Positions 17,464 to 59,236 of a stretch of 64,000 bases of DNA are shown here, in pieces. Under the pieces are notes generated by a model that saw only the letters and a program-made list of their open reading frames with translations, was not told where the DNA came from and ran no database searches. This DNA is from a phage. The number at the start of each line of letters is the position of its first letter. Within the stretch, counting starts at the first letter, position 1. Both the position numbers and the translations under genes were made by a program. The stretch lies in the sequence record PZ296772.1. The stretch is one strand, 5' to 3'.

Positions 17464-17476
17464 TTTTCACAAAACA

Positions 17477-17512
17477 GTTTACATAAGGATGATGGTGTGT
17501 TACTATCATCCT
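17477..17512 (+). promoter_or_regulatory. Early promoter cassette (GTTTAC -35, TACTAT -10, GGATGAT/ATCATCC inverted repeat)
   Basis: -35 17477-17482, -10 17501-17506, 18-bp spacer, 7-bp inverted repeat flanking the -10. Confidence 0.6.
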
Positions 17513-17540
17513 ATCAAATAAACAGCCTCAAGGAAATAAA

Positions 17541-17828
17541 ATGAAAACCTATAAAGAATTTATATCACCTGTTGCTAACGTTTCTACTCTGACCGAAGCA
17601 TCCCTTACTTCTGAAGTTATTAAAACAAATAAAGGACGTGAGGGTAAACCAATGATTAGTCTGGTTGACGGCGAAGAAGTAAAAGGTACTGTTTACTTAG
17701 GGGATGGATGGTCTGCTAAGAAAGATGGCGCTACTATTGTTATCTCTCCGGCTGAAGAGACTGCACTGTTTAAAGCTAAGCATATTTCTGTAGCTCAGCT
17801 TAAAATTATTGCAAAAACTCTTCTGTAA
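17541..17828 (+). CDS. Capsid-targeted internal protein candidate (IPI-like)
   Basis: 95-aa ORF starting MKTYKEFISPVANVSTLTE: T4 capsid-targeting-sequence-like leader with [LI]xE protease motifs; in ipI position next to 57B. Confidence 0.7.
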   Translation: MKTYKEFISPVANVSTLTEASLTSEVIKTNKGREGKPMISLVDGEEVKGTVYLGDGWSAKKDGATIVISPAEETALFKAKHISVAQLKIIAKTLL

Positions 17829-17831
17829 GTA

Positions 17832-17870
17832 GTTTACATGTTGATAGGACTATGTTATAGTAGTCCTATC
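17832..17870 (+). promoter_or_regulatory. Early promoter cassette (GTTTAC, TATAGT, GATAGGACTA/TAGTCCTATC inverted repeat)
   Basis: -35 17832-17837, -10 17856-17861, perfect 10-bp inverted repeat 17843-17852 / 17861-17870. Confidence 0.65.
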
Positions 17871-17893
17871 AAAACAACCAAATGGAACCTAAA

Positions 17894-18157
17894 ATGAAAA
17901 CTTTCAACGAATTCATCTCAGAATCGTCTGGTGTGAAAATTAACAAAGCGGTCAATCAGGTTATTGTTGATATTCTTAATTTGTATAACATTGACTTAAC
18001 TCCGCATATCACGCTTGGTAACAAACGAAACTTTTTCATATTTGACACGTCTGAACTTGATGAAAATCAGTTCAATAACATTCAACGTTTTGCGAATGAT
18101 AAAGGTCTTCGACACGAGCCTGGTGGCTATAAAAAATACGCAATATATTTGAAATAA
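17894..18157 (+). CDS. Capsid-targeted internal protein candidate
   Basis: 87-aa product from MKTFNEFISESSG (CTS-like leader, ISE at residues 8-10). Confidence 0.6.
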   Translation: MKTFNEFISESSGVKINKAVNQVIVDILNLYNIDLTPHITLGNKRNFFIFDTSELDENQFNNIQRFANDKGLRHEPGGYKKYAIYLK

Positions 18158-18160
18158 AGG

Positions 18161-18198
18161 TATACAAGCCTATAGGGATATGATATAGTAGTCCTATC
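18161..18198 (+). promoter_or_regulatory. Early promoter cassette (TATACA -35, TATAGT -10, partial inverted repeat)
   Basis: -35 18161-18166, -10 18184-18189, 17-bp spacer; right arm TAGTCCTATC as in other copies. Confidence 0.5.
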
Positions 18199-18226
18199 AA
18201 AACAAATGAGTAAATGGAGAAATAAA

Positions 18227-19661: not shown

Positions 19662-19735
19662 GGCCCTGTAGCTCAACGGTTAGCAGCAGTCCCCTCATAA
19701 GGGAAAGGTTACCAGTTCGAATCTGGTCTGGGTCA
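19662..19735 (+). tRNA. tRNA with anticodon CAU (Met or Ile2/lysidine type)
   Basis: Hand-folded cloverleaf: acceptor GGCCCUG/CUGGGUC (1 mismatch), T-arm ACCAG-UUCGAAU-CUGGU, anticodon loop CUCAUAA; CCA not encoded. Confidence 0.65.
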
Positions 19736-19741
19736 TATATT

Positions 19742-19818
<77 letters not shown>

Positions 19819-21098: not shown

Positions 21099-21140
21099 GT
21101 TTACTTCTTCTAAGGACATGATACTATAGACTTATCAACC
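21099..21140 (+). promoter_or_regulatory. Early promoter cassette (GTTTAC -35, TACTAT -10)
   Basis: -35 21099-21104, -10 21122-21127, 17-bp spacer, followed by CTTATCAAC leader. Confidence 0.5.
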
Positions 21141-21155
21141 GCAGAGGAAAATGTT

Positions 21156-21529: not shown

Positions 21530-21694
21530 ATGACTACTTTAATTATTTGGTTCGATGAAAATGAAGAAACATACTGTGTGAATATCGGTGAAAGTCCAAT
21601 GCCTGAATTTGAATCCTCAGATAAAAACTCTGTTGTATCTTGGGCTGAAGGTTATAAAGCCGCTAAAGGTGACGTTGAAATAATTTACATCTAA
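21530..21694 (+). CDS. Small hypothetical protein (54 aa, below ORF-track cutoff)
   Basis: ATG 8 nt after GAGGAG RBS; MTTLIIWFDENEETYCVNIG...; shares leader and first codons (ATGACTACTTT) with ORF at 26139. Confidence 0.5.
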   Translation: MTTLIIWFDENEETYCVNIGESPMPEFESSDKNSVVSWAEGYKAAKGDVEIIYI

Positions 21695-21720
21695 GTAAGT
21701 TTATGTTATAGTAATCACAT
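21684..21720 (+). promoter_or_regulatory. Early promoter-like element (TTTACA -35, TATAGT -10)
   Basis: -35 21684-21689, -10 21707-21712, 17-bp spacer, upstream of ORF 21741. Confidence 0.45.
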
Positions 21721-21740
21721 CAAATCAAGAGGAAAACAAA

Positions 21741-21968
21741 ATGGCTAAAGTTAGTATTGATGTCGTTGATTATGAATATACCGAAGAAGTTATTCGCAAC
21801 CGTCACCCTGAAGTTCGTATCGATTCAGCCCAAGATTCCAAGTTCTGGACAACTGAGCTTAATCTGAGTGGTCCTTATGAAGCTGTTAAGAAGTTCATGG
21901 TTGAAGAATACTGCGAAGGCATGCACCCGGAAGACGCCAAGTTTTATGTCAATTTGATTAAAAAATAA
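21741..21968 (+). CDS. Hypothetical protein
   Basis: 75-aa ORF. Confidence 0.5.
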   Translation: MAKVSIDVVDYEYTEEVIRNRHPEVRIDSAQDSKFWTTELNLSGPYEAVKKFMVEEYCEGMHPEDAKFYVNLIKK

Positions 21969-22005
21969 TTTACAAACTCTTGAGAGCAGAGTATAATGCT
22001 CTCAT
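21969..22005 (+). promoter_or_regulatory. Early promoter cassette (TTTACA, TATAAT, TGAGAGCA/TGCTCTCA inverted repeat)
   Basis: -35 21969-21974, -10 21992-21997, 8-bp inverted repeat flanking the -10; near-duplicate of cassette at 53512. Confidence 0.55.
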
Positions 22006-22038
22006 TGGATAATAAACCACCAATTGAAAGGTAATAAT

Positions 22039-23642: not shown

Positions 23643-23980
23643 CCGTATGGCCTTCTCTTGGTGAGAATATTTTAATTTTTATCACGAGCGCCGGCATGGG
23701 ATTTGCCTTTGGATTAGTTGGATTTCTTATTGACGGCGTTGTGTTAGGATTTATAGGGAACACTGGTGGGTTCACAGACCAATGGCAGGACTTACGGTAT
23801 ACCCAAGCCTTTGCATCCATCGCATCCTTTTGTACTGTAGTCTATTTTTACTACGATTTTATAAACCATAACAAGAAAAATAAAAAGGTTTACGCTTCTC
23901 AAATGATTAGTTATAATGAACTCCTAGCTAGACGTGAAAATGAAACAATCGAAAACTTTATTAAGGAATGTAGAAAATGA
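23621..23980 (+). CDS. Membrane protein with C-terminal ENFIKECRK tail
   Basis: 119-aa ORF; 2-3 hydrophobic helices then Lys-rich linker and ENFIKECRK terminus. Confidence 0.55.
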   Translation: MQKPQLLTVWPSLGENILIFITSAGMGFAFGLVGFLIDGVVLGFIGNTGGFTDQWQDLRYTQAFASIASFCTVVYFYYDFINHNKKNKKVYASQMISYNELLARRENETIENFIKECRK

Positions 23981-24775: not shown

Positions 24776-24814
24776 GTTTACAATAAGATAGGACTATGTT
24801 ATAGTAGTCCTATC
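24776..24814 (+). promoter_or_regulatory. Early promoter cassette (GTTTAC, TATAGT, GATAGGACTA/TAGTCCTATC inverted repeat)
   Basis: -35 24776-24781, -10 24800-24805, perfect 10-bp inverted repeat 24787-24796 / 24805-24814. Confidence 0.65.
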
Positions 24815-24833
24815 AAATTAAATGGAGTCCGCA

Positions 24834-26070: not shown

Positions 26071-26106
26071 GTTTACAAGGTCTGTAGTTGTTGATACTAT
26101 AGACCT
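26071..26106 (+). promoter_or_regulatory. Early promoter cassette (GTTTAC, TACTAT, AGGTCTGTAG/CTATAGACCT inverted repeat)
   Basis: -35 26071-26076, -10 26095-26100, inverted repeat with one mismatch. Confidence 0.6.
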
Positions 26107-26138
26107 ATCAAAACAAATGAGTGAATGGAGATATAAAA

Positions 26139-26339: not shown

Positions 26340-26340
26340 G

Positions 26341-26378
26341 TGTACAAACTGATAGGGCTATGTTATAGTAGTCCTATC
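26341..26378 (+). promoter_or_regulatory. Early promoter cassette (TGTACA, TATAGT, GATAGGGCTA/TAGTCCTATC inverted repeat)
   Basis: -35 26341-26346, -10 26364-26369, imperfect 10-bp inverted repeat. Confidence 0.55.
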
Positions 26379-26395
26379 AACTTGAGGAGAATATT

Positions 26396-28561: not shown

Positions 28562-28569
28562 GTAATAAA

Positions 28570-28593
28570 TACCTCCTATAAACGTGGGAGGTA
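28570..28593 (+). promoter_or_regulatory. Stem-loop sequestering the Shine-Dalgarno of gene e
   Basis: TACCTCC-tataaacgtg-GGAGGTA: 3' arm contains GGAGG 5 nt before the e start codon; loop contains late-promoter-like TATAAACG. Confidence 0.6.
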
Positions 28594-28595
28594 TT

Positions 28596-29084
28596 ATGAA
28601 TATATTTGAAATGCTTCGTAATGACGAAGGTCTTAGACTGACTTTATACAAAGACACTGAAGGCTTTTGGACTATTGGCATAGGCCATTTAGTAACAAAG
28701 AACCCGTCTTTAGCCGTAGCTAAAGCTGAACTTGACAGAATGATCGGTCGTAAATGCAACGGTACAATTACACTTGATGAGGCTGAAAAGCTATTTAATG
28801 AAGACGTTGATAAAGCCGTTCGCGGAGTCTTGGGTAATGCTAAACTTAAACCGGTATATGATTCTTTAGATGCGGTTCGTCGATGTGCATTGGTCAATAT
28901 GGTCTTCCAAATGGGTGTAGCAGGCGTCGCCGGTTTTACTAATTCTCTTCGTATGCTTCAACAGAAACGTTGGGACGAGGCGGCAGTAAATCTAGCCCAA
29001 TCTAAATGGTATCGTCAGACACCTAATCGCGCGAAACGCGTAATCTCAACATTTAAAACAGGAACTTGGAAAGCGTATATATGA
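28596..29084 (+). CDS. e: Endolysin (T4 lysozyme e)
   Basis: 162-aa product [32 protein letters not shown]... about 80% identical to T4 lysozyme from memory; catalytic Glu/Asp/Thr context conserved. Confidence 0.97.
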
Positions 29085-29363: not shown

Positions 29364-29416
29364 GTTTACTTCCTCCAAGGTCTTTGATACTATACATTCA
29401 TCAACTACTTGGAGGA
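29364..29416 (+). promoter_or_regulatory. Early promoter cassette upstream of denV (GTTTAC, TACTAT, 9-bp inverted repeat containing the denV RBS)
   Basis: -35 29364-29369, -10 29388-29393, TCCTCCAAG (29371-29379) / CTTGGAGGA (29408-29416). Confidence 0.6.
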
Positions 29417-29420
29417 AATT

Positions 29421-30104: not shown

Positions 30105-30145
30105 GTTTACGCTTAAGTATTAATATGGTATAATTGCTCTATCAA
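30105..30145 (+). promoter_or_regulatory. Early promoter cassette (GTTTAC -35, TATAAT -10)
   Basis: -35 30105-30110, -10 30129-30134, 18-bp spacer, CTATCAAAAC leader. Confidence 0.5.
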
Positions 30146-30164
30146 AACAAACAAGGAAACAAAA

Positions 30165-30494
30165 ATGAAAACGTATAAAGAATTTATCACTGAAGTTACA
30201 TTATCTGCGGAACAGAAAGCTGCTATCGAAGAAGGTAAAAATCCCAAAGTAACATATAAAGTAAATAGTAAAGGCGTTTTTGATGGTTTGGTTCAAGACC
30301 CTGAATTGAAAAAAGCTCTTTCTAAAACTAATGCGTACTTTGCTCCTAAATTTAACACAGCCGGTGTACTTATTGGATTGGATGTATTCAACTCTAAAGG
30401 TGTTCTATCTAATGCCTTTGGTTATGCCGCTAACAAAATTACCAAAGCTGCATGGGAATCCAATACCAAACAAGCTCAAAAGCCTAGAGTATAA
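30165..30494 (+). CDS. Capsid-targeted internal protein candidate
   Basis: 109-aa ORF starting MKTYKEFITEVTLSAEQ (CTS-like, ITE at 8-10). Confidence 0.65.
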   Translation: MKTYKEFITEVTLSAEQKAAIEEGKNPKVTYKVNSKGVFDGLVQDPELKKALSKTNAYFAPKFNTAGVLIGLDVFNSKGVLSNAFGYAANKITKAAWESNTKQAQKPRV

Positions 30495-30666
30495 TTCTTG
30501 CCTAATAAAGGGAAACGCAACCTCTCCTCATGAACGTCGAGTCCTCTGAGTGATGTACCTTTTCCAACCTGTAATAAGGCCGAGCGCAATGCGGTAATGG
30601 GTTTACATAGCGAGTCGAAGGACCTAACATGTGCCACGGAACGGCCCCAACCTTAAGAGAAACTAA

Positions 30667-32579: not shown

Positions 32580-32630
32580 GTTTACTTCTCCTCTAGTTGT
32601 GTTACTATAGACATGTCAACTAGAGGAGAA
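32580..32630 (+). promoter_or_regulatory. Early promoter cassette with 14-bp perfect inverted repeat
   Basis: -35 GTTTAC 32580-32585, -10 TACTAT 32603-32608, TTCTCCTCTAGTTG (32586-32599) / CAACTAGAGGAGAA (32617-32630); right arm contains the RBS. Confidence 0.65.
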
Positions 32631-32636
32631 ATCAAA

Positions 32637-36187: not shown

Positions 36188-36191
36188 TCAA

Positions 36192-36810: not shown

Positions 36811-36814
36811 TCAA

Positions 36815-36853: not shown

Positions 36854-36905
36854 GTTTACTTCTCCTCAGGTTGTGTTATAGTAGACCTTACTTACTAGAG
36901 GAGAA
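36854..36905 (+). promoter_or_regulatory. Early promoter cassette (GTTTAC, TATAGT, TTCTCCTC/GAGGAGAA inverted repeat)
   Basis: -35 36854-36859, -10 36877-36882, 8-bp inverted repeat 36860-36867 / 36898-36905 including the RBS. Confidence 0.6.
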
Positions 36906-36909
36906 CGTT

Positions 36910-37096: not shown

Positions 37097-37303
37097 ATGC
37101 TTTACGATTATACTGGAAAATCTGAAGACGGTGTACTTGAACTTTTACCTGAAAGCGCTGAAGATGATGATACGGTGGTGATGTTTTGTAAAAATGGTCC
37201 TGGGGATAAGGGATGGATTTATCTTCGTCAAGAAAATGACTTAATTGTTTTGGACCCTAAACAAGTTGAAGAACTTTATCAACATTTAAAACACAATCGG
37301 TAG
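37097..37303 (+). CDS. Hypothetical protein
   Basis: 68-aa product from MLYDYTGKSEDGVLE (GAGGA RBS). Confidence 0.45.
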   Translation: MLYDYTGKSEDGVLELLPESAEDDDTVVMFCKNGPGDKGWIYLRQENDLIVLDPKQVEELYQHLKHNR

Positions 37304-37341
37304 TTTACATCTTGGTAGGACTGTGTTATAGTAGTCCTACC
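37303..37341 (+). promoter_or_regulatory. Early promoter cassette (GTTTAC, TATAGT, GGTAGGACT/AGTCCTACC inverted repeat)
   Basis: -35 37303-37308, -10 37327-37332, 9-bp perfect inverted repeat. Confidence 0.65.
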
Positions 37342-37361
37342 AAAAACAAATGGAGAACAAA

Positions 37362-39696: not shown

Positions 39697-39733
39697 GTGT
39701 ACATGCTTTTAGGATATGTTATTATAGACCTAT
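39697..39733 (+). promoter_or_regulatory. Early promoter cassette (GTGTAC -35, TATTAT -10)
   Basis: -35 39697-39702, -10 39720-39725, CTATCGAAAC leader. Confidence 0.5.
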
Positions 39734-39763
39734 CGAAACGAAATGAGTAAATTGGAGAATAAA

Positions 39764-41172: not shown

Positions 41173-41207
41173 GTTTACAAGGTCTATGATTATGTTATTA
41201 TAGACCT
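41173..41207 (+). promoter_or_regulatory. Early promoter cassette (GTTTAC, TATTAT, AGGTCTAT/ATAGACCT inverted repeat)
   Basis: -35 41173-41178, -10 41196-41201, 8-bp inverted repeat. Confidence 0.6.
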
Positions 41208-41228
41208 ATCAACTACTGGAGGTAAAAC

Positions 41229-41818: not shown

Positions 41819-42814
41819 ATGAGCATTACATCTGATGCGGTAAAACATGAAATTAACGGTTTATGTGCTTCACAGATTAAAGTGTGGTTTAAAGACCATA
41901 ACGATCGCAGAGCACTTAATTATGAGCAAATTGCTATCCAAGTTCATCAATTACTGACAAGTAAATTTGATTTTCATATGCCGTCTGAAATCTATACTAA
42001 TCTGCCGCGAGCACTTATTAAAGCGTGTAAAGGTTATGGAAAATCAATGGCTGACGGAATATTCAGCGCGCTGAATAAACTTAACGTTCTGTCGATGATT
42101 AACTCTAACAACATCCTGCGTAATCTAGGACGTACTGATTTGTTCGGTCGTGAACAGTGTAAAATGCCTTTGAAATGGATTGTTGCCCATCTTAACGAGA
42201 ACCAAACACGTTTTATGGCTGTAACAGCACGTTTACAAATGGGCCTAGATCGTCAGATGAACTTTAAAACTCATCCACGTTATTCAGGTTCAACAAACTT
42301 TTATAAATGTGAGCTTCAAAAGGTTGGTGGCAAAACTGTCTTAGTAGTTCGTGTAACGTTTGAAGGACGTCGTCAAGGATATTTTGACATAATCGGCTCT
42401 GGACTTAAACATTGTGGATTTATCGACGAAGTTGATATCAAGCGAGACGGCATTGGATACCGTATTGGGTATGTTTGTACTCTTAAAGAAGAGATTTCAG
42501 GACCAGCACCAGGACTAAAAGACGTTAGATATAAAGACGAGCTCGTTGAAGAAATAAAAGAAGTTGAATATGATATCAACCAAGAAGATGCTCTTAAAGA
42601 CCTTATTGATGAACTGAACCAAGACGTTATTCCGGTTCAGAAATTTGAATCAAAACATGCTGAGCAAATCAAATACTTTGAAGCTTTGATTAACGAACTT
42701 AATGTAACTATTCAACAGACTGATGATGAAATCTCACGATTAGCGGGCTTAAACGGTAAAAATAAAACAGAACGAGCTAATCTTATTCAAGTAGTAAAAC
42801 TTCTTAAGGAATGA
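41819..42814 (+). CDS. Hypothetical protein with C-terminal coiled coil (1 of 3 tandem)
   Basis: 331-aa ORF; about 230-aa N-domain then heptad-rich C-terminus. Confidence 0.5.
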   Translation: MSITSDAVKHEINGLCASQIKVWFKDHNDRRALNYEQIAIQVHQLLTSKFDFHMPSEIYTNLPRALIKACKGYGKSMADGIFSALNKLNVLSMINSNNILRNLGRTDLFGREQCKMPLKWIVAHLNENQTRFMAVTARLQMGLDRQMNFKTHPRYSGSTNFYKCELQKVGGKTVLVVRVTFEGRRQGYFDIIGSGLKHCGFIDEVDIKRDGIGYRIGYVCTLKEEISGPAPGLKDVRYKDELVEEIKEVEYDINQEDALKDLIDELNQDVIPVQKFESKHAEQIKYFEALINELNVTIQQTDDEISRLAGLNGKNKTERANLIQVVKLLKE

Positions 42815-42845
42815 TGTACAACCAAGGATGGTTGGAGTATAATAA
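42815..42845 (+). promoter_or_regulatory. Early promoter cassette (TGTACA, CAACCA/TGGTTG inverted repeat, TATAAT)
   Basis: -35 42815-42820, -10 42838-42843, inverted repeat 42819-42834. Confidence 0.55.
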
Positions 42846-42869
42846 ATTTTTCAACATGAGGAATATAAA

Positions 42870-43833: not shown

Positions 43834-43865
43834 GTTTACAACCAAGGATGGTTGGAATATAATGA
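43834..43865 (+). promoter_or_regulatory. Early promoter cassette (GTTTAC, CAACCA/TGGTTG, TATAAT)
   Basis: -35 43834-43839, -10 43858-43863; near-identical core to cassette at 42815. Confidence 0.6.
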
Positions 43866-43891
43866 ATCTATCTTAACGAGAGGAAAATATT

Positions 43892-45560: not shown

Positions 45561-45816
45561 AGTGTACGGGTATGACTCTACTATTCATAAATGCATTTAT
45601 TGTGATAATGCGAAACGATTGCTGACTGTTAAGAAACAGCCATTCGAATTCATTAATGTTATGCCAGAAAAAGGTGTGTTCGATGATGAGAAAATTGCTG
45701 AGCTTCTGGTTAAGCTTGGACGTGAATCACAAGTCGGATTGACTATGCCACAGATATTTGCTCCTGATGGAAGTCATATTGGTGGATTTGACCAACTGCG
45801 AGAATATTTTAAATGA
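45553..45816 (+). CDS. nrdC: Glutaredoxin/thioredoxin NrdC
   Basis: 87-aa product MFKVYGYDSTIHKCIYCDNAKRLL... with CxxC active site; close to T4 NrdC from memory. Confidence 0.9.
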   Translation: MFKVYGYDSTIHKCIYCDNAKRLLTVKKQPFEFINVMPEKGVFDDEKIAELLVKLGRESQVGLTMPQIFAPDGSHIGGFDQLREYFK

Positions 45817-46109
45817 GTATTGATTTAACTTTCCCGGGCTCTTATGACCAGGGTAAATTAGAAGCTTTGTTATATCAAGAAATGTGTTCTCGTGCTAAGA
45901 ACGATATCCAATATGCTATCGATAATCCATGGGGTGAATTTCGTATATTAATGGGTAATCGAATCATAGGTGTTCAATGGCGATTCGTTGGTCTTGAACC
46001 TGAAGACTACGAAGAAAACGAGCACGGTGACTGGATTCCTGTTGGTGAATATCACTGGGAATACGGTGGTCCTGATTTCGAAGTTTCCTGTGCCTGGGTA
46101 GAACAATAA
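45813..46109 (+). CDS. Hypothetical protein
   Basis: 98-aa ORF. Confidence 0.5.
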   Translation: MSIDLTFPGSYDQGKLEALLYQEMCSRAKNDIQYAIDNPWGEFRILMGNRIIGVQWRFVGLEPEDYEENEHGDWIPVGEYHWEYGGPDFEVSCAWVEQ

Positions 46110-46784: not shown

Positions 46785-47198
46785 ATGAATATTTCTGAAA
46801 CTCGCGGTAAATGGTTCAAGATTGTTAAAGAAGACGAAGAACTACAAGACAAGTTTCCTGAATTAAAGAAAGGAACAATCCTCAAGGTAATTGGTACTAC
46901 TACCGAAGATGGTTATGGCGACCATGGCATTATCGAAGTGATGTTGAACACAGGTGAGAAACTTTGCATCTATGACCGTGATACTTCTCTTTGGTGCTTC
47001 TGGGAATCCCATTCAATAGATGAACTCGAAGAAATTGACCAAGTAGTTTGTGATGGTGGACTTGGCGAATTCGAAGGTGAACGTATTTCTTATGCTTTAG
47101 CTAAATTAGCTGGTCAAGAAAATAATGACGGTTATGAAGGTAATCTGATGCAAGCCGCAGCGGAATACATTGAATATTTAGAAAGACGTTTAAGTTAA
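46785..47198 (+). CDS. Hypothetical acidic protein
   Basis: 137-aa product from MNISETRGKWFKIVKEDEE; ATG abuts upstream stop. Confidence 0.5.
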   Translation: MNISETRGKWFKIVKEDEELQDKFPELKKGTILKVIGTTTEDGYGDHGIIEVMLNTGEKLCIYDRDTSLWCFWESHSIDELEEIDQVVCDGGLGEFEGERISYALAKLAGQENNDGYEGNLMQAAAEYIEYLERRLS

Positions 47199-47203
47199 TA
47201 AAT

Positions 47204-47228
47204 ACCCTTATCTATTTAAGGTAAGGGT
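47204..47228 (+). promoter_or_regulatory. Stem-loop sequestering the gene 49 Shine-Dalgarno
   Basis: ACCCTTA-(11 nt loop)-TAAGGGT; 3' arm contains AAGGG 6 nt before the gene 49 ATG. Confidence 0.5.
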
Positions 47229-47233
47229 TTATC

Positions 47234-47707
47234 ATGTTATTATCAGGCGCAAAATATAAAGAAGAAAAACAAAAATTTTATGATGCACAGAATGGTAAGT
47301 GTCCTATTTGCCACCGTGAATTAGACCCTGATGTTCAAGGTAACCATCTTGACCACGACCATGAATTAAACGGGCCAAAAGCTGGTAAGGTTCGTGGTTT
47401 ACTATGTAACCTGTGCAATGCAGCAGAAGGTCAAATGAAGCATAAGTTCAACCGTTCTGGTCTTAAAGGTCAAAACGTTGATTACCTCGAATGGCTTGAA
47501 GCTCTTCTTGCTTATTTGAAACAAGATTATTCTGATAATAATATCCATCCTAATTTTGTTCCAGACAAAACTAAAGAGTTCTCAAGACTAGGTAAAGAGG
47601 AAATGATGACTGAGATGCTTCAAAGAGGATTTGAATATAATGAATCTGATACTAAAACACAATTAATAGCTTCATTCAAAAAGCAGCTTAGAAAGAGTTT
47701 AAAATGA
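47234..47707 (+). CDS. 49: Recombination endonuclease VII (Holliday junction resolvase)
   Basis: 157-aa ORF with Zn-binding CPICHRELD...CNLCN; size as T4 gp49. Confidence 0.93.
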   Translation: MLLSGAKYKEEKQKFYDAQNGKCPICHRELDPDVQGNHLDHDHELNGPKAGKVRGLLCNLCNAAEGQMKHKFNRSGLKGQNVDYLEWLEALLAYLKQDYSDNNIHPNFVPDKTKEFSRLGKEEMMTEMLQRGFEYNESDTKTQLIASFKKQLRKSLK

Positions 47708-48241
47708 CGATTGAAAAAGAAATTGAAGGACTAATTCATAAAACTAATAAAGACCTTTTAAACGAGAATGCTAATAAAGATTCTCGTGTTTTTCCAACTC
47801 AACGGGACCTTATGGCTGGTATTGTGTCTAAACACATTGCCAAAAATATGGTCCCGTCTTTTATTATGAAAGCGCATGAAAGCGGAATTATCCATTTCCA
47901 CGATATTGATTATTCCCCTGCTCTTCCATTTACTAATTGCTGTTTAGTAGATTTAAAAGGAATGCTTGAGAACGGATTTAAGCTCGGTAATGCACAGATT
48001 GAAACTCCTAAATCAATCGGCGTTGCTACTGCAATTATGGCGCAAATTACTGCACAGGTTGCTTCCCACCAATATGGCGGAACGACTTTTGCGAATGTAG
48101 ATAAAGTACTTTCTCCTTATGTTAAACGCACCTATGCAAAACATATTGAGGATGCAGAAAAATGGCAAATCGCTGATGCGTTGAATTATGCTCAATCTAA
48201 AACAGAAAAAGATGTATATGACGCGTTTCAGGCGTATGAGT
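47704..48241 (+). CDS. nrdD: Anaerobic ribonucleotide reductase NrdD, exon 1 (3' boundary approximate)
   Basis: Reading frame MTIEKEIEGLIHKTNKDLL... stops 3 codons after ...DAFQAYE; the NrdD frame resumes about 1 kb downstream. Confidence 0.85.
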
Positions 48242-48452
48242 TAATTTAATTCAGGCTCATGTAAAACCGGTCTAAACGGGGAACCTCTCTAGTAGACAAT
48301 CCCGTGCTAAATGTTCTTTTGAACTAAATGCCTAACGACTAACCGTGATGAATGTAGCGGTGTAGAATAGAAGCTAATGCTATTCGAAACGGCCGGCATC
48401 GAAAGATGAAGATATAGTCTAATCTGCATGGCGACATGCAGCAGTCATCTTG

Positions 48453-48460
48453 TATAAATA
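48453..48460 (+). promoter_or_regulatory. T4-type late promoter TATAAATA inside intron, upstream of endonuclease ORF
   Basis: Exact TATAAATA 30 nt upstream of ATG 48490. Confidence 0.5.
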
Positions 48461-48489
48461 AGATTATCTTATGAATACGAGGTGAAACA

Positions 48490-49260
48490 ATGAAATGGAT
48501 AAAAAGACGTTGTACTAAAATAAAAGATAAAGACGCATTTACATACTTAGTTAAGTTTTCTAATGGCGACATTTATATCGGTTATAAAAAATTTAGAACA
48601 ATTAAAAACAAGCCCACAAACTGGAAAACTTACACAACGTCATCTAAGTATATAAATGAACGCTTAAAAACTGATACACCTACTAAATGGATAATTTTAA
48701 AAACATTTGATAGTTATAAAGATGCATTAAAACATGAAGAAGAGGTCATACGTAAATATTTTTATAGCAAAAAATGTTTAAATAAATCCATAGGCGGTAA
48801 AAAGTTTTATAAGCATCCGGATACTGAAGAACATATTCAAAAATTAAGAGATGCTCATAAGGGTAAAGTGTTATCCGAATCTCATAAAAACAATATAAAA
48901 TCTTCTGTGGCTGAATATTATGCTAAAAACAGAAGATCTAAGGAACATGTGCAAAATAATATCAATAGTCGAAAAAGTAAAAAACAAGTATCGATAAAGC
49001 TTAAAAATAAAACTTTTAGAAGTTTTAAAAAAGCAGCGGAATATTTAAATTGCACTGAAAGTGAAGTCGAAACTCATCCTCTTGTTTTGAGTATTAAGAC
49101 TACTATTCATAAAGTTCCTGAATATGTGGTTGTTGACGGTATTAAGTATACGTCTTATATAGAAGCAGCTAAAGCGCTAAATTTTCATCCTAGCACTATA
49201 AAAGAACGTTGCATATCTATGGACTATCCAAATTTTGTTGTTTCATATAAACGGGCATGA
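48490..49260 (+). CDS. Intron-encoded homing endonuclease (GIY-YIG-like N-terminus)
   Basis: 256-aa basic ORF; N-terminal TYLVKFSNGDIYIGY resembles GIY-(x9-11)-YIG; C-terminal repeated helix-turn-helix-like segments (AAEYLNCTESEV, AAKALNFHPSTI). Confidence 0.7.
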   Translation: MKWIKRRCTKIKDKDAFTYLVKFSNGDIYIGYKKFRTIKNKPTNWKTYTTSSKYINERLKTDTPTKWIILKTFDSYKDALKHEEEVIRKYFYSKKCLNKSIGGKKFYKHPDTEEHIQKLRDAHKGKVLSESHKNNIKSSVAEYYAKNRRSKEHVQNNINSRKSKKQVSIKLKNKTFRSFKKAAEYLNCTESEVETHPLVLSIKTTIHKVPEYVVVDGIKYTSYIEAAKALNFHPSTIKERCISMDYPNFVVSYKRA

Positions 49261-49274
49261 ATTTGCGACTCATG

Positions 49275-50566
49275 CTGAATATAATGATGAAGTAAATACA
49301 CTTTTCAGCTCTAATGGTCAAACGCCTTTTGTAACAATTACATTTGGTACGGGAACTGACTGGACTGAACGAATGATTCAGAAAGCAATTCTGAAAAATC
49401 GTATTAAAGGTCTTGGTCGTGATGGGATAACTCCTATTTTCCCTAAGCTTGTTATGTTCGTTGAAGAAGGTGTTAATCTTTATAAAGATGATCCGAACTA
49501 TGATATTAAGCAGCTTGCTTTAGAGTGTGCAAGCAAAAGGATGTATCCTGATATTATTTCAGCTAAGAACAATAAAGCTATCACTGGTTCATCTGTTCCT
49601 GTTTCTCCAATGGGTTGCCGTAGTTTCTTGAGCGTATGGAAAGATTCGACTGGTAATGAAATTCTTGATGGACGTAATAATCTTGGTGTTGTAACACTGA
49701 ATCTTCCTCGCATCGCGTTAGATTCTTATATTGGAACACAGTTCAATGAACAGAAATTTATCGAATTGTTCAATGAACGAATGGATTTATGTTTTGAAGC
49801 TTTGATGTGTAGAATTAGTTCCTTAAAAGGAATTAAAGCTACTGTTGCTCCTATTCTTTACCAAGAAGGTGCATTCGGGGTTCGTCTTAAACCCGATGAC
49901 GATATAATTGAGTTATTTAAAAACGGTAGAAGTTCAGTGTCTTTAGGATACATTGGTATTCACGAATTGAATATTCTTATCGGTCGTGATATTGGACAAG
50001 AAATTTTAACTAAAATGAATGCTCATCTTAAACAGTGGACTGAAAGAACTGGGTTTGCTTTTAGTTTGTATTCTACTCCTGCTGAAAACCTTTGCTATCG
50101 CTTCTGTAAACTTGATACAGAAAAATATGGAAGTGTAAAGGATGTTACTGATAAAGGTTGGTACACTAACAGTTTCCATGTTTCAGTAGAAGAAAATGTT
50201 ACTCCGTTTGAAAAGATTTCTCGTGAAGCGCCATATCATTTCATTGCGACAGGTGGTCACATTTCTTATGTTGAACTTCCTGATATGAAAAATAACTTAA
50301 AAGGTCTTGAGGCTGTATGGGATTATGCCGCACAACATTTAGATTATTTTGGTGTTAATATGCCAGTAGATAAATGTTTTACATGTGGAAGTACCCATGA
50401 AATGACTCCTACTGAAAACGGATTTGTTTGTTCTATTTGCGGAGAAACTGATCCTAAAAAGATGAATACCATAAGAAGAACATGTGGTTATTTGGGAAAT
50501 CCGAACGAACGCGGATTTAATCTCGGTAAAAATAAAGAAATCATGCATAGGGTTAAACACCAATGA
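49275..50566 (+). CDS. nrdD: Anaerobic ribonucleotide reductase NrdD, exon 2 (5' boundary approximate)
   Basis: Frame ...EYNDEVNTLFSSNGQ... to C-terminal glycyl-radical region with Zn-binding CFTCGSTHEM...CSICGE and RRTCGYLG. Confidence 0.85.
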
Positions 50567-52082: not shown

Positions 52083-52131
52083 GTTTACATCCTCGATAGA
52101 TGTGTTAAGATTAAACCAACTGCTATAGAGG
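52083..52131 (+). promoter_or_regulatory. Early promoter-like cassette (GTTTAC -35, weak -10, imperfect inverted repeat)
   Basis: -35 52083-52088; CCTCGATAG / CTATAGAGG arms. Confidence 0.4.
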
Positions 52132-52139
52132 AAAACAAA

Positions 52140-52574: not shown

Positions 52575-52868
52575 ATGGGTAAAACATATCGTCGTAAAGA
52601 TTTGAAAGTTCGCGATTACGACTATTTTGGTAAGCGTAAAGCTCCTGACGGTGTTAGCCACAAAGACATGGTTGAAAACATCTTCCGCTCAGATAAATGG
52701 AAACGTATGAAAGGTGTTGATTCTGAAGTCAAGAACGAAATGAATCGACAACTCCGCAAAGAAGTTCGTAAGTTGAAAAAAGATGTTTACAGTAAAGAAG
52801 ATTATGATTATAATACTTCTCATACTGAAGCCAAACGTAAAGCTAACGAATGTTATCGTTACAGTTGA
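52575..52868 (+). CDS. Hypothetical basic protein
   Basis: 97-aa product from MGKTYRRKDLKVRDYDYFGKRK. Confidence 0.5.
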   Translation: MGKTYRRKDLKVRDYDYFGKRKAPDGVSHKDMVENIFRSDKWKRMKGVDSEVKNEMNRQLRKEVRKLKKDVYSKEDYDYNTSHTEAKRKANECYRYS

Positions 52869-53208: not shown

Positions 53209-53211
53209 TAA

Positions 53212-53248
53212 TGTACAACGATAGGAAGACATGTTATTATCTTCCTAT
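53212..53248 (+). promoter_or_regulatory. Early promoter cassette (TGTACA, TATTAT, ATAGGAAGA/TCTTCCTAT inverted repeat)
   Basis: -35 53212-53217, -10 53235-53240, 9-bp perfect inverted repeat. Confidence 0.55.
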
Positions 53249-53271
53249 CGTCTTAAAATGAGGAAAATATC

Positions 53272-53511
53272 ATGGCCCAAGAATTAGATTTTATCAAATT
53301 CAAAAAACACCTCGACGTTAAAATTGGGGATTCAATTGTTAGGATTGAGTATGACATTTTAACAGATGCTATTACTGTTAGTTGTGATGGAAATAGTTTC
53401 AGCTTCGATACAACCGAAAACAAATACCCAATCTATAAAGGCATCTTTGATATGGGTGTTGATATCACTCCACGTGATACAAATTACTTACTTTTCATGC
53501 TTAAAAAATAA
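53272..53511 (+). CDS. Hypothetical protein
   Basis: 79-aa ORF. Confidence 0.5.
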   Translation: MAQELDFIKFKKHLDVKIGDSIVRIEYDILTDAITVSCDGNSFSFDTTENKYPIYKGIFDMGVDITPRDTNYLLFMLKK

Positions 53512-53545
53512 TATACAACTCTTGAGAGATGAGTATAATTCTCTA
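53512..53545 (+). promoter_or_regulatory. Early promoter cassette (TATACA, TATAAT, AGAGA/TCTCT inverted repeat)
   Basis: -35 53512-53517, -10 53534-53539; near-duplicate of cassette at 21969 including downstream TTGGATAATAAA. Confidence 0.55.
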
Positions 53546-53576
53546 GTTGGATAATAAAATAACCGAGGAAAATAAT

Positions 53577-54406: not shown

Positions 54407-54450
54407 TGCTTTAAGATAGGTCTCTAAATATTATGATATAATAGACCTAT
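54407..54450 (+). promoter_or_regulatory. Promoter-like element upstream of gene 55 (TGCTTTA box, -10-like TATTAT/TATAAT, inverted repeat)
   Basis: TGCTTTA 54407-54413; TATAAT 54437-54442; GATAGGTCTC / ATAGACCTAT arms. Confidence 0.4.
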
Positions 54451-55945: not shown

Positions 55946-55970
55946 AGGAACTCTTCGGAGTTCCTTTTTT
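55946..55970 (+). terminator. Intrinsic terminator
   Basis: AGGAACUC-UUCG-GAGUUCCU hairpin followed by UUUUU. Confidence 0.7.
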
Positions 55971-56016
55971 GCTTTATAAACGGATGATAGAATGAATTAA
56001 CTAATGAGGAAATAAT

Positions 56017-57036
56017 ATGAAAATTTTGCACTTAGGCGACTTCCATATCGGAGTCAAACAAGACGACCCATGGGTTCAAGATATTCAACGTGATGGTATT
56101 CGTCAAGCAATTGAATACTCTAAGAAACACGGGATTAAAACTTGGATTCAGTACGGCGATTGGTTTGACGTCCGTAAAGCAATAACACATCGTACAATGG
56201 AATTCAATCGTGAAATCGTTGATATGATTTCTAAAGCAGGCATTCACGTTCATGTCACGATAGGAAACCATGACATGGCGTTTAAGAATACAATAACACC
56301 TAACACTGTTTCTGAATTGTTAACTCAATTTGAAAACTTTACTATTTACGAGCGTCCGACTACTGTAGATTTTGACGGATGTCTGATTGATATCGTTCCA
56401 TGGATGTGTGAAGAAAATACAGGTGAAATCTTAGAGCACATCAAGACTTCTTCCGCAGCGTATTGTGTTGGGCACTGGGAACTGAACGGCTTTTATTTCT
56501 ATAAAGGAATGAAGTCTCATGGGCTTGAACCTGATTTCTTAAAGACCTATAAACAAGTCTGGTCCGGCCACTTCCACACAATCTCTGAAGCTGCTAACGT
56601 CAAATATATTGGGACACCATGGACCCTTACTGCAGGCGATGAGAACGACCCACGCGGATTCTGGGTATTTGACACTGATGTTGAACGTATGGAATTTATT
56701 CCTAATGAAACAACATGGCATCGACGAATCACTTATCCGTTTAAAGGCAAAATCAATTATTCTGATTATACTAATCTAGCCGTACGTGTTATAGTATCAG
56801 AAATTGATTCAGAGTTGACTAAGTTTGAATCTGAACTTGAAAAAGTAGTTCACTCTCTTCGTATGGTTTCTAAAGTTGATAACAGTGTTGAATCTGATGA
56901 TGACCAGGAAATCGAGATTAAATCACTTCAAGATATCATTAAAGAATATATTGACGCGATTCCAGATATCTCAGACGAAGACAGAGAAGCGCTGGTCAAA
57001 TATTCCAACGAACTTTATATTGAGGCAACACAATGA
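56017..57036 (+). CDS. 47: Recombination endonuclease subunit gp47 (Mre11-like)
   Basis: 339-aa ORF with phosphoesterase motifs LHLGDFH, GDWFD, GNHD; same length as T4 gp47. Confidence 0.93.
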   Translation: MKILHLGDFHIGVKQDDPWVQDIQRDGIRQAIEYSKKHGIKTWIQYGDWFDVRKAITHRTMEFNREIVDMISKAGIHVHVTIGNHDMAFKNTITPNTVSELLTQFENFTIYERPTTVDFDGCLIDIVPWMCEENTGEILEHIKTSSAAYCVGHWELNGFYFYKGMKSHGLEPDFLKTYKQVWSGHFHTISEAANVKYIGTPWTLTAGDENDPRGFWVFDTDVERMEFIPNETTWHRRITYPFKGKINYSDYTNLAVRVIVSEIDSELTKFESELEKVVHSLRMVSKVDNSVESDDDQEIEIKSLQDIIKEYIDAIPDISDEDREALVKYSNELYIEATQ

Positions 57037-57290
57037 CTTTAGATGAATTTAACAATGCTGGGCTCGGGCTTGAAGTTGAAATAGACGTTAAAGATGATGA
57101 TGGATTCGAGAACACCATCAAGTATTGGATTGAGCCATTACGCGTTGAAGGCAATGAAGTTAAAGCAGTTCATGTCTGCACCGACTGGGCTATTGAATTT
57201 AGCTTTAATATAATGGACAACGATACTCCCGGCTCTATTCTTAAAATGGCTGAAGCGTGTATCGAGGATGCGTATAATGACGAAGACTGA
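57033..57290 (+). CDS. Hypothetical acidic protein
   Basis: 85-aa ORF, ATGA-coupled to gene 47. Confidence 0.5.
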   Translation: MTLDEFNNAGLGLEVEIDVKDDDGFENTIKYWIEPLRVEGNEVKAVHVCTDWAIEFSFNIMDNDTPGSILKMAEACIEDAYNDED

Positions 57291-57516
57291 TTATAAAATC
57301 CATCGTCATGAATTTAGTATTGGTGACGGTTATATTGGTATCGTTGAATGGACTGAGAATTACGAGGAATCAACTCCTCGTTTCTTTGGAACAATGTATG
57401 TTACCTGTGAGTACGCACCAGGTGTTGTTATGTATGCAGAACTAGATGAATATTTTGCTGATAGAGATGACATGTTAAAATATGTAGAGGACTTCATTCG
57501 AAGAGAATACATATGA
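57277..57516 (+). CDS. Hypothetical protein
   Basis: 79-aa product from MTKTDYKIHRHEF. Confidence 0.5.
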   Translation: MTKTDYKIHRHEFSIGDGYIGIVEWTENYEESTPRFFGTMYVTCEYAPGVVMYAELDEYFADRDDMLKYVEDFIRREYI

Positions 57517-59201
57517 AATCATTTAAATTAAATCGTGTTCGTTATCAAAACATCATGTCGGTAGGTGGGAATCCTATTGATATCCAATTAGATAAAGTCC
57601 AAAAGACATTAATCACCGGTAAAAACGGCGGTGGTAAATCTACGATGTTAGAAGCCATTACTTTCGGACTTTTCGGTAAACCATTTCGTGATGTTAAGAA
57701 AGGACAAATCATTAACAGCACGAATAAGAAAGAGCTCTTAGTTGAGCTTTGGATGGAATTCGATGATAAAAAATACTTCATTAAACGCGGCCAAAAGCCC
57801 AATATTTTCGAAATCTCCGTTGACGGTGTTCGTCTTGATGAATCTGCCAGCAGTCGGGACTTCCAAGAAGAATTTGAACGTAGCATCGGAATGTCATACG
57901 CGTCTTTTAAACAAATCGTTGTGCTTGGGACGGCAGGGTATACCCCTTTCATGGCTCTTAGCACCCCTGCTCGTAGAAAACTTGTCGAAGACCTTTTAGA
58001 AGTCGGCACACTCGCTGAAATGGATAAAATCAATAAGTCTCAAGTTCGAGAACTTAATTCCCAGGGACAAGTTCTAGATGCCAAGAAAGATGGTATTATC
58101 CAACAAATTAAGATTTATAACGAGAATATTGAACGTCAAAAGAAATTATCTGGTGATAATGTAGCGCGTCTACAGAATATGTATGACGATCTAGCCAAAG
58201 AAGCTCGTTCATTAAAAGCAGAAATCGAAGAAGCTAATGAGCGACTACTTAATATCGTTCTTGATGAAGACCCTACTGAGGCATTCAACAAGATCGGACA
58301 AGAAGCATTCTTGATTAAATCTAAAATTGACTCATATAACAAAGTTATTAAGATGTATCATGATGGCGGTACATGTCCTACTTGTGCATCACAGTTGCAC
58401 CAGGGTGATCCTATTGTCTCTAAGATTACCGATAAGCTTCACGAATGTAATCACTCATTCGAGCAACTTACATGTCACAGAGATAATCTGAGTGTCCTAG
58501 TGGACGAATATAGAGCTAATGTTAAGACTAAACAGGACCTTGCATCTGATATTCGTACCAAGAAACAAGCAATGATTGCCACTATTGATAAAGCTAAGAA
58601 AGTTAAAGCTGCAATAGAGCAAGCCTCAGCAGAATTTATCGACCATGCTGATGAGATAGCTTTGCTTCAAAAAGAACTTGATAAAATCATTAAAACAAAA
58701 TCAGACATCGTTCTTGAAAAATACCATCGTGGTATTATCACAGATATGTTAAAAGATTCTGGTATTAAAGGTGCTATCATTAAAAAATATGTGCCTTTGT
58801 TCAACAAGCAGATTAACCATTATCTTAAAATCATGGAAGCTGATTACGTGTTTTCTATTGACGAAGAATTCAATGAATCTATAAAATCACGTGGTCGTGA
58901 AGACTTTAGTTATGCTTCATTTAGTCAAGGTGAAAAGGCCCGTATCGATATCGCACTGTTGTTTACATGGCGAGATATTGCTGAAAAGGTCTCTGGTGTT
59001 AAAATCAACACTCTGATTCTTGATGAGGTTTTTGATGGTGCTGTCGATTCTGAGGCTGTTAAGGCTATAGATACCATCCTTGGTAGTTTACAAAATACTA
59101 ATGTGTTCATTATCTCTCATCGAGATCATGACCCTCAACGTTATGGACAACATCTTCAAATGAGCAAAGTTGGACGATTTACTGTAATGACTGTTTCATA
59201 A
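57513..59201 (+). CDS. 46: Recombination endonuclease subunit gp46 (Rad50-like ATPase)
   Basis: 562-aa ORF: Walker A GKNGGGKST, central coiled coil with zinc hook CPTC, signature FSQGEKARIDIALL, Walker B LILDEVFDG. Confidence 0.95.
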   Translation: MKSFKLNRVRYQNIMSVGGNPIDIQLDKVQKTLITGKNGGGKSTMLEAITFGLFGKPFRDVKKGQIINSTNKKELLVELWMEFDDKKYFIKRGQKPNIFEISVDGVRLDESASSRDFQEEFERSIGMSYASFKQIVVLGTAGYTPFMALSTPARRKLVEDLLEVGTLAEMDKINKSQVRELNSQGQVLDAKKDGIIQQIKIYNENIERQKKLSGDNVARLQNMYDDLAKEARSLKAEIEEANERLLNIVLDEDPTEAFNKIGQEAFLIKSKIDSYNKVIKMYHDGGTCPTCASQLHQGDPIVSKITDKLHECNHSFEQLTCHRDNLSVLVDEYRANVKTKQDLASDIRTKKQAMIATIDKAKKVKAAIEQASAEFIDHADEIALLQKELDKIIKTKSDIVLEKYHRGIITDMLKDSGIKGAIIKKYVPLFNKQINHYLKIMEADYVFSIDEEFNESIKSRGREDFSYASFSQGEKARIDIALLFTWRDIAEKVSGVKINTLILDEVFDGAVDSEAVKAIDTILGSLQNTNVFIISHRDHDPQRYGQHLQMSKVGRFTVMTVS

Positions 59202-59203
59202 AC

Positions 59204-59236
59204 GCTTTAACACGATGTGGTTATAATGACCACATC
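59204..59236 (+). promoter_or_regulatory. Middle-promoter-like element (CGCTTTA box + TATAAT with GATGTGGT/ACCACATC inverted repeat)
   Basis: Box 59204-59210, -10 59222-59227, 8-bp inverted repeat flanking the -10. Confidence 0.45.

Follow-up and report, generated by a model that had tools for sequence, protein, structure and literature searches.

Copy-specific inverted repeats at the early promoters of a T4-type Mosigvirus, and their possible role in folding read-through RNA

The stretch of phage DNA analysed here (64,000 nt, sequence record PZ296772.1, hereafter the window) falls by megablast among the RB69-like T4-type coliphages of the genus Mosigvirus, with 95-99% identity to APCEc01, phiC120, vB_Eco_mar005P1 (mar005P1 below) and many others, and represents the early region of a Mosigvirus. 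Gene names were carried over from the vB_Eco_mar005P1 annotation. Baseplate genes lie on the minus strand to ~13.9 kb, followed by the block 4-2-3-1-57A-57B; the plus-strand early region then runs in order through ipI, trna.x, two tRNAs, e.x, nudE, e, denV, vs.x, regB, vs and tk, and on through rI, mobD.x, nrdC.x, pin, 49, nrdD, nrdG, 55, 47, 46, 45.2, 45, 44, 62 and regA. The span 17464-59236 is a classic T4-type hyperplastic early region. Its intergenic promoters, many of them overlapped by an inverted repeat, are the subject of this report; the original prediction, made from the window alone, had likened them to promoter early stem-loops (PeSLs).

A systematic scan for a GTTTAC-like -35, a 17/18-bp spacer and a TAnnnT -10, followed by a Shine-Dalgarno (SD) sequence and ATG, returned 21 intergenic early-promoter modules of the form GTTTAC-N17/18-TAnnnT, leader, SD, ATG (Table 1; modules are named by their first position). 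Two further modules, 54407 before gene 55 and 59200 before 45.2, are of the MotA type by the middle-promoter consensus of PMC1524935, and three or four perfect promoter-consensus matches lie within the ends of open reading frames (ORFs). The predicted total of about 25 copies therefore holds for promoter-like modules, but a repeat spanning the -10 or the SD is present in only ~15-16 of them, and the copy at 59214-59236, which had been counted as an early promoter, is a MotA-box middle promoter, as is the copy at 54416-54450. All of the arms quoted in the original prediction were recovered at their positions. The -35 is GTTTAC or xTGTAC, the spacer is 17-18 bp and the -10 is TATAAT, TATAGT, TACTAT or TATTAT; TTTACW is matched in 14 of the 21 early modules and TAYWAT in 13, the remaining -10 boxes being mostly TATAGT. 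The 25 nt before the -35 are 73% A+T, against 63% window-wide, and every early module (21/21) is followed by an SD and ATG within 16-40 nt of the -10. CTATC occurs in the start region of 11/21 modules and ATCAA likewise in 11/21, in agreement with the start region and promoter consensus originally described. The hairpins sit just past the stop codon of the upstream gene.

The repeats had been treated as a single class around the -10. Many copies do bracket the -10, but two distinct geometries had been merged. In type A (about 10 copies: ipI, orf17894, e.6, orf24834, orf26139, orf26396, mobD.2, nrdC.8, orf53272 and the 45.2 middle promoter) the loop of a hairpin of 8-13 bp contains the -10, and the SD is left unpaired. 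The left arm runs from about -25 to -16 and the right arm from -7/-8 to about +5, so that the loop of 8-12 nt is essentially TGn plus the -10; predicted stabilities are -14 to -19 kcal/mol, and the arms of modules 17477, 17832, 24776, 37303 and 53211 contain AGGA...TCCT. In type B (denV, regB, orf36910, orf52140 and orf21156) the left arm begins one or two bases past the -35 and carries an anti-SD (TTCTCCTC, TTCCTCC or TTCTTCT), the right arm consists of the gene's SD with its flanks, and the loop of 17-33 nt contains the -10 and the start site. The observation that the right arm can contain the downstream SD is thus true for five copies. The 5' arm of the modules occupies roughly -30 to -13 and precedes the inferred start (~7 nt after the -10); a promoter's own transcript could therefore not form the helix, and only read-through RNA could.

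The repeat of each module was scored as the longest segment of the spacer that is perfectly complementary to a segment of the interval that starts with the -10 and ends at the ATG. By this score 10/21 modules hold a perfect inverted repeat of >=8 bp that spans the -10, compared with a mean of 0.19 (max 3, 2000 trials) when the left region is shuffled, and an 8-bp repeat occurs in 1.2% of random positions with the same geometry. When ViennaRNA folds were compared with dinucleotide shuffles, 12 of the 23 module hairpins reached z <= -4 and three more fell at -2.4 to -2.8. Fold z against these shuffles was not significant for 36854 and 53511, and modules 21683, 30105 and 39697 had no structure at all by ViennaRNA z-score or by the repeat scan.

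The complementarity is specific to each copy. Self-paired arms give a mean best helix of 7.2 bp and left arms paired with the right arm of another copy 5.0 bp, a difference reached by 0/20,000 permutations; because self-pairing beats chimeric pairing, the repeat is not just a shared palindromic consensus. In a family of 19 distinct sequences from the window, T4, mar005P1 and IMG/VR contigs that share one helix register, changes on both sides were found at 9/12 helix positions (34 cells), and the covariation score was 0.493 as against 0.239 +/- 0.024 for shuffles (0/500 reach it) and 0.06-0.28 with the partner slid by 1-3 columns. Pooling of unique modules (n=364) gave a perfect repeat of >=7 bp in 137 where 10.6 were expected, with 59 distinct left arms of type A and 31 of type B. 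That arms differ between copies and yet stay complementary is hence confirmed, and copy-specific, covarying complementarity supports the accompanying claim of selection on a nucleic-acid structure and not on a protein site. Scoring covariation column by column in MAFFT alignments of the sequence upstream of regB and denV was given up, since arms shift by 1-2 nt between haplotypes, in favour of the arm-anchored self-versus-chimera test and the single-register family, and one covariance model for all copies was discarded in view of a helix register that spans -5 to +7 relative to the -10.

The same sites carry helices in other phages. Comparison was made with T4, with mar005P1 (95-97% identical) and with IMG/VR contigs, from which ortholog upstream regions were taken using regB, denV, nrdC.8, 57B, e.6 and tk as anchors; mobD.1 as an anchor in IMG/VR returned one locus only. 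In T4 the promoters of ipI, ipII, ipIII, denV, regB, mobD.2 and nrdC.8 are arranged alike but have other arms, for example a 14-bp helix at ipII, AATTGTGA/TCACAATT at ipIII, TCTCCTGTAG/CTACAGGAGA at denV, TCCTCTT/AAGAGGA at regB (extendable by two G.U pairs) and GTTCCTC/GAGGAAC at nrdC.8. Upstream of regB, denV and nrdC.8 we found 19 left-arm haplotypes, which form about ten families unrelated to one another. Every haplotype is complementary to the SD flank of its own sequence; mean self-pairing was 10.2 bp against 6.1 for chimeras, and 0/20,000 permutations reached the observed value. A second topology occurs at denV, in which the anti-SD occupies the interval bounded by the 3' end of the -10 and approximately +1 (left arm -9 to +1), as in ATGTCCTCCTA/TAGGAGGACAT, again upstream of the inferred start. 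At type A sites, too, the helix is kept while the arms are unrelated (AGGTCTATAG, GTGTAGG, GTGTAGGAG, TAGTGT and others).

For the type B genes the partition function predicts that the helix would hide the ribosome-binding site. Over the interval -14..+2, SD-AUG accessibility at the five type B genes drops in read-through RNA to 0.42-0.56 of what it is in the own transcript (0.50 at module 21099 and 0.51 at 52083), and the type B helices, at -10 to -24 kcal/mol, are comparable in stability to the hairpins that this genome has at e (-16.3) and 49 (-13.5). The latter two are SD-masking T4-type hairpins at 28563-28597 (e; ATACCTCC...GGAGGTAT) and 47196-47234 (gene 49), each with a late-promoter-like AATAAATA within its 5' arm, and served as an internal positive control. 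SD masking via a promoter within a hairpin is known for T4 e, soc, 49 and I-TevI (PMC3014915, section 29), where the SD is held by a 5' arm upstream of the proximal start, so that long transcripts are silent and proximal ones translated. The proximal promoter there is late (TATAAATA) and delays expression, whereas here it is early (GTTTAC-N17/18-TAnnnT) or MotA-type, which is predicted to restrict translation to the immediate-early burst. By analogy, type B would carry the e/49/soc/I-TevI principle over to early promoters as masking of their SDs. Only late-promoter cases are given for the mechanism in the 2010 reviews, which mention no hairpin in regB control, although older T4 papers may already describe early-promoter cases; the word 'translation' is absent from the 2010 PeSL paper (PMC2839356).

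Table 1. Promoter modules of the window, all on the plus strand; arms are given as left/right with their positions, z is the fold z-score
Module	Downstream gene	Class	Arms and positions	z	Remarks
17477..17540	ipI	early, type A	AGGATGAT/ATCATCCT, 17486-93/17505-12	-4.57	-35 17477-82, -10 17501-06; T4 ortholog arms differ, TGATGAGGTA/TACCTCATCA
17832..17893	IP-like ORF 17894-18157	early, type A	TTGATAGGACTA/TAGTCCTATCAA, 17841-52/17861-72	-6.23	loop holds -10 TATAGT; left partner of indel-flanking pair; originally quoted as GATAGGACTA/TAGTCCTATC, 17843-17852/17861-17870
18160..18226	trna.4	early, degenerate type A	ATAGG/CCTAT only		right arm as in 17832, left arm decayed; right partner of indel-flanking pair
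21099..21155	orf21156	early, weak type B	TTCTTCT/AGAGGAA, 21105-11/21143-49	-2.36	one G.U; right breakpoint vs mar005P1
21683..21740	frd.3-like ORF	early, no inverted repeat		+1.17	
21968..22038	e.6	early, type A	TGAGAGCA/TGCTCTCA, 21981-88/21997-22004	-4.0	ortholog arms ATTAGA/TCTAAT or GTGTAGGAG/CTCCTACAC
24776..24833	orf24834	early, type A	GATAGGACTA/TAGTCCTATC, 24787-96/24805-14	-6.52	
26071..26138	orf26139	early, type A	AGGTCTGTAG/CTATAGACCT, 26078-87/26097-26106	-5.18	one G.T
26340..26395	orf26396	early, type A	TGATAGGGCTA/TAGTCCTATCA, 26350-60/26369-79	-6.11	one G.T
29364..29420	denV	early, type B	anti-SD TTCCTCCAAG/SD-containing CTTGGAGGAA, 29370-79/29408-17	-5.36	anti-SD straight after -35; at least 8 different arm sequences in orthologs
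30105..30164	IP-like orf30165	early, no inverted repeat		+0.30	
32580..32636	regB	early, type B	anti-SD TTCTCCTCTAGTTG/CAACTAGAGGAGAA, 32586-99/32617-30	-6.29	-23.8 kcal/mol; ortholog arms differ
36854..36909	orf36910 (DUF7438)	early, type B	TTCTCCTC/GAGGAGAA, 36860-67/36898-36905	-1.15	classical terminator directly upstream
37303..37361	mobD.2	early, type A	TTGGTAGGACT/AGTCCTACCAA, 37312-22/37333-43	-4.96	A-T to G-C compensatory change vs 17832; T4 ortholog AGTTGACAAGATTA/TAATCTTGTCAACT
39697..39763	nrdC.10	early, no significant repeat		+0.53	separate GGGCC-UUCG-GGCCC hairpin and T-run upstream, 39651-39668
41173..41228	nrdC.8	early, type A	AGGTCTAT/ATAGACCT, 41180-87/41200-07	-4.92	type B helix instead in T4-type orthologs, GTTCCTC/GAGGAAC
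42814..42869	nrdC.5	early, 5-bp hairpin	AACCA/TGGTT, 42820-24/42829-33		entirely within spacer; -10 not bracketed
43834..43891	nrdC.3	early, same spacer-internal hairpin			near-duplicate of 42814 (58/73 positions)
52083..52139	orf52140	early, type B	TCCTC-g-ATAG/CTAT-a-GAGGA, 52090-99/52123-32	-2.46	
53211..53271	orf53272	early, type A	ACGATAGGAAGA/TCTTCCTATCGT, 53218-29/53240-51	-5.65	double compensatory changes vs 17832; originally quoted arms ATAGGAAGA/TCTTCCTAT fall within these
53511..53576	orf53577	early, degenerate	CAACT..AGAGA/TCTCT AGTTG	-1.07	weak bipartite helix
54407..54471	gene 55	middle-promoter-like	ATAGGTCT/AGACCTAT, 54416-23/54443-50	-2.84	MotA box TGCTTTA; -10 assignment ambiguous
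59200..59256	45.2	middle promoter, type A	GATGTGGT/ACCACATC, 59214-21/59229-36	-4.58	MotA box aaaCGCTTTA, 12-nt spacer, TATAAT 59222-27

Perfect GTTTAC-N18-TATAAT matches lie in the 3' ends of ORFs at 23888-23917, 44814-44843 and 52785-52814, 30-60 nt upstream of the next gene. All three are without an inverted repeat, which is consistent with coding constraint on the spacer, and T4 has homologous sites, for example before 55.4. A non-coding stretch of ~170 nt before vs.8 (30495-30666) is unusually G+C-rich, has a predicted folding energy of -29.8 kcal/mol and holds a GTTTAC-N18-TAACAT match; an Rfam search found no match for it. That search returned only two tRNAs and no known RNA family for the module hairpins. 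There are just two tRNA genes (19662-19818), Met-CAT and Arg-TCT; mar005P1 agrees in this, whereas eight are found in T4.

Comparison with mar005P1 revealed nine breakpoints, six of them at or beside a module and two of these with module sequence on both flanks. At 17832/18160 the window has two modules around an extra internal protein (IP)-like ORF (17894-18157) and mar005P1 has one; that single module is made up of the left part of 17832 and the leader of 18160, with the crossover in a shared 22 bp, TATAGTAGTCCTATCAAAACAA. At 30141-30187 it is mar005P1 that carries an extra IP-like gene, the duplicated segment consisting of the module leader and the MKTYxEFI leader codons, and three more replacements or insertions have their right ends at modules 21099, 32580 and 36854. 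The three breakpoints without a module are an in-gene indel, ORF 45813-46109 and the insertion of a GIY-YIG endonuclease gene. What near-duplicate modules have in common is a core of 43-73 bp and not the flanking genes: 24776 and 17832 share only a 43-bp core, and 53511 and 21968 a 62-bp core (54/62 identical). Such pairs had been described as lying 10-30 kb apart, which fails for 42815/43834 (1 kb apart); 21968/53511 are 31.5 kb apart and share no more than that core. The coincidence of module cores with indel breakpoints relative to a 95-97% identical phage bears out the predicted mobility of the cassettes, and at the level of sequence comparison the breakpoints match the recombination part of the PeSL model. 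The statement that the copies delimit almost every block of unrecognised ORFs was overstated, given 23 modules per roughly 95 plus-strand genes and the 3/9 breakpoints without one.

Three small ORFs, with starts at 17541, 17894 and 30165, open with MKT(Y/F)xEFI, a leader conserved among the internal proteins that are packaged into the capsid; the number of IP-like ORFs varies relative to mar005P1, and one crossover lies within the leader-coding sequence. ORF 45813-46109 (98 aa, no Pfam match) is absent from mar005P1 and has ~39 bp of homology at its breakpoints and no promoter module. The ~1-kb insertion at 48239-49280, beside or within nrdD, has TATAAATA at 48453 and includes ORF 48490-49260, whose GIY-YIG (SegE-like) and NUMOD1 protein is probably a homing endonuclease. 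A 185-aa DUF7338 gene (ORF 36253-36810), missing in the close relative mar005P1, is flanked by identical 34-bp copies of an intrinsic terminator (AATCAAAGCCCCTTCCGAAAGGTTGGGGCTTTTT) at 36186-36219 and 36809-36842, with a late-promoter TATAAATA at 36221; it represents a different kind of cassette, with terminators and not promoters as its flanks.

The likening of the modules to PeSLs is upheld, with the distinction that they fit the T-even type, whose elements Arbiol et al. called analogs, not homologs, of the RB49 PeSLs (PMC2839356). The elements of T4/PST likewise combine an AT-rich region, TTTACW-N17-TAYWAT, a stem-loop that is often AGNA-loop-TCNT (here AGGA...TCCT), an SD and ATG, and, together with those of nt-1/KVP40, cluster in hyperplastic regions beside indels and include middle-promoter forms (PmSLs) (PMC4122927). 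The genome here belongs to Mosigvirus, a genus not analysed in PMC4122927, and its -10 is frequently TATAGT; moreover, the legend there puts stems 'just upstream of the promoter' as terminators, whereas the arms here straddle the -10 or reach the SD. In RB49 and phi1 the stem-loop also overlaps the early promoter, most often between the -35 and -10 or over the -10, in ~100-bp cassettes that end in SD and ATG, flank ORFan indels and act as recombination substrates (PMC2839356). RB49 PeSLs differ in having a perfect sigma-70 TTGACA-N17-TATAAT and G-run/C-run stems, in contrast to the GTTTAC or xTGTAC and AT-rich stems found here, and it is for RB49/phi1 alone that termination and the formation of mini-circles have been demonstrated (PMC2839356). 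A further parallel, as relayed in PMC2839356, is with the T-even IP-locus elements of Repoila et al. 1994, in which a T4 early promoter and AT-rich variable stem-loops flank shuffled internal-protein genes; here too ipI, orf17894 and orf30165 (MKT(Y/F)xEFI) lie behind modules. On that account those elements concern two IP loci only, while here and in T4 the whole early region is involved, including denV, regB, mobD.2, nrdC.x and e.6. On their sequence features, then, the modules are members of the T-even-type PeSLs and lack both the RB49-type features and the terminator signature. To that class we add quantified copy-specific, covarying complementarity, the separation of two geometries and, in one of them, a widely conserved anti-SD/SD helix.

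We consider it reasonably probable that the early promoters, and the two middle ones, are cassettes whose helices fold read-through RNA, with type B masking the SD. The sigma-70/Alt-type early promoters are packed as compact intercistronic cassettes (A/T-rich upstream region, -35, spacer, -10, start region, leader, SD, ATG), in which the positions free to vary, namely the spacer and the stretch from about -6 on, appear to have been made mutually complementary in about two thirds of copies. RNA started at the module promoter would lack the 5' arm and stay open, and read-through RNA, holding both arms, would fold. At type B modules the anti-SD after the -35 would then sequester the SD and leave translation to proceed mainly from the gene's own short-lived early transcript; at type A modules the helix would most likely act as RNA-level punctuation of polycistronic transcripts, whether as a barrier to decay, a signal for processing or a weak attenuator. 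Quite apart from the helix, the cores of 43-62 bp that modules have in common provide homology patches for cassette insertion and deletion.

Several results weigh against this reading. Start sites were placed 7 nt after the -10, from the -10 position and not from mapped transcript ends, and the covariation family was admitted by a seed helix, which inflates its percentage of paired positions and, to a lesser degree, its compensatory counts. The helix is absent in about a quarter of modules and so is not essential to promoter function. Most type A genes, the majority class, have an accessibility ratio of 0.8-1.06 and thus no SD masking, and an insulator role for type A was rejected since scrambling of the left arm shifts predicted SD accessibility by a mean of +0.04. 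A terminator-like hairpin just upstream of type B modules 36854 and 52083 limits read-through. Mismatches in otherwise perfect helices are G.T in 11 cases and A.C in 3 (14 collapsed helices; composition predicts 1:1), which points towards plus-sense RNA and away from a cruciform but is no more than suggestive (p about 0.06). Finally, one RB49 stem-loop cut downstream lacZ about like rrnB T1 (Arbiol 2010, PMC2839356).

The last result belongs to the published PeSL model, in which the stem-loop terminates or attenuates upstream RNA and isolates each cassette, the stems possibly being recombination targets too; Comeau 2014 (PMC4122927) extended the terminator/promoter label to T4/PST elements, and both the position of the hairpins just after the upstream stop codon and the indels at modules fit. 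For the modules described here we nevertheless regard it as unlikely. None of their hairpins has a U-tract, the right arms being followed by AAAACAA-type A-runs, and in a terminator consensus scan, which assessed the sequence signature alone, none of the plus-strand hits falls on a module hairpin. The module stems are rich in A+T, loops in type B are 17-33 nt long, and the specific pairing of anti-SD arms with the SD is left unexplained. Classical GC-stem plus T-run terminators do occur elsewhere (22641-58, 55946-65, 36809-42, 39651-68 and others), and because two of them lie directly upstream of modules 36854 and 39697, module stems would be redundant there as terminators. A full-text literature search gave, among the matches listed, no relevant genome-wide 3'-end or start-site dataset for T4-type phages. 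Selection might instead act on DNA, through cruciform or hairpin extrusion that modulates the open complex or early shut-off, or through a recombination hotspot (e.g. for endonuclease VII). Early-promoter shut-off is mechanistically unexplained and T4 early promoters have an unexplained extra consensus (PMC2988021, PMC3014915), the type A repeat is centred on the -10, and RB49 mini-circle crossovers fall within the stem-loop (PMC2839356). We find this improbable all the same: the register relative to the -10 is not fixed, the excess of G.T over A.C favours one RNA strand, and the partner arm of type B is the SD, 30-45 nt off, which is sensible only in RNA. The promoter-in-hairpin arrangement is also found at middle and late promoters in the window, where the transcribing holoenzyme takes other forms. 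In addition, extrusion is expected to be poor for stems of 8-12 bp that enclose loops of 8-30 nt.

Complementarity could also be kept without selection, by cassette duplication and template-switch 'correction' of quasi-palindromes; templated quasi-palindrome mutation was reportedly first described in T4, by Ripley in 1982. Although several near-duplicates share the cassette core only and copies 18160 and 53511 are decaying, we attach little probability to a non-adaptive origin, which would have to account for a ~13-fold enrichment over shuffles (137 vs 10.6) that is confined to promoters (1.2% at random positions), for genera at 55-80% protein identity that keep a helix with unrelated arms at orthologous sites, for type B arms that target the SD specifically, and for the tolerance of G.T and not of A.C. 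An operator for a dimeric DNA-binding protein that controls early promoters, to which the dyad symmetry over the -10 and the recurrent AGG...CCT core of type A arms (AGNA-loop-TCNT in PMC4122927) might point, was rejected on arm diversity and seems to us very improbable indeed. Many of the 59 type A and 31 type B arms have no common half-site (TGAGAGCA, GATGTGGT, AGTTGACAAGATTA and AATTGTGA, for instance), covariation keeps pairing and not sequence, and a fixed protein-DNA geometry is disfavoured because the helix register varies.

Folding of read-through RNA remains the reading that we favour, and it can be taken further, if only tentatively. In early and middle promoters throughout the Tevenvirinae, the positions that are free to vary may have been recruited systematically as the 5' arm of an RNA helix, which would make each such promoter a sensor of transcript origin and the PeSL stems primarily post-transcriptional devices rather than terminators. 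As part of this same tentative proposal, the SD would be masked at regB, denV, nrdC.8-type genes and several ORFans, with hairpin punctuation elsewhere, and the stems would act on translation, RegB access and decay; insulation of this kind could let cassettes shuffle without disturbing their neighbours. The analysis reassigns a likely function to a phage element that is widespread and has received little study. Should the stems gate translation according to the promoter from which the RNA came, they would add a third layer of control to the timing of early genes such as those for the RegB nuclease and DenV, on top of promoter shut-off and cleavage by RegB, and RNA-seq abundance would mispredict protein output for genes within long early transcripts. 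For annotation, the modules supply transcription-unit boundaries for about 95 poorly characterised genes. The cassettes would, if this is true, be self-contained expression units, which would help to explain the plasticity of T4-type hyperplastic regions and would offer compact parts for phage engineering.

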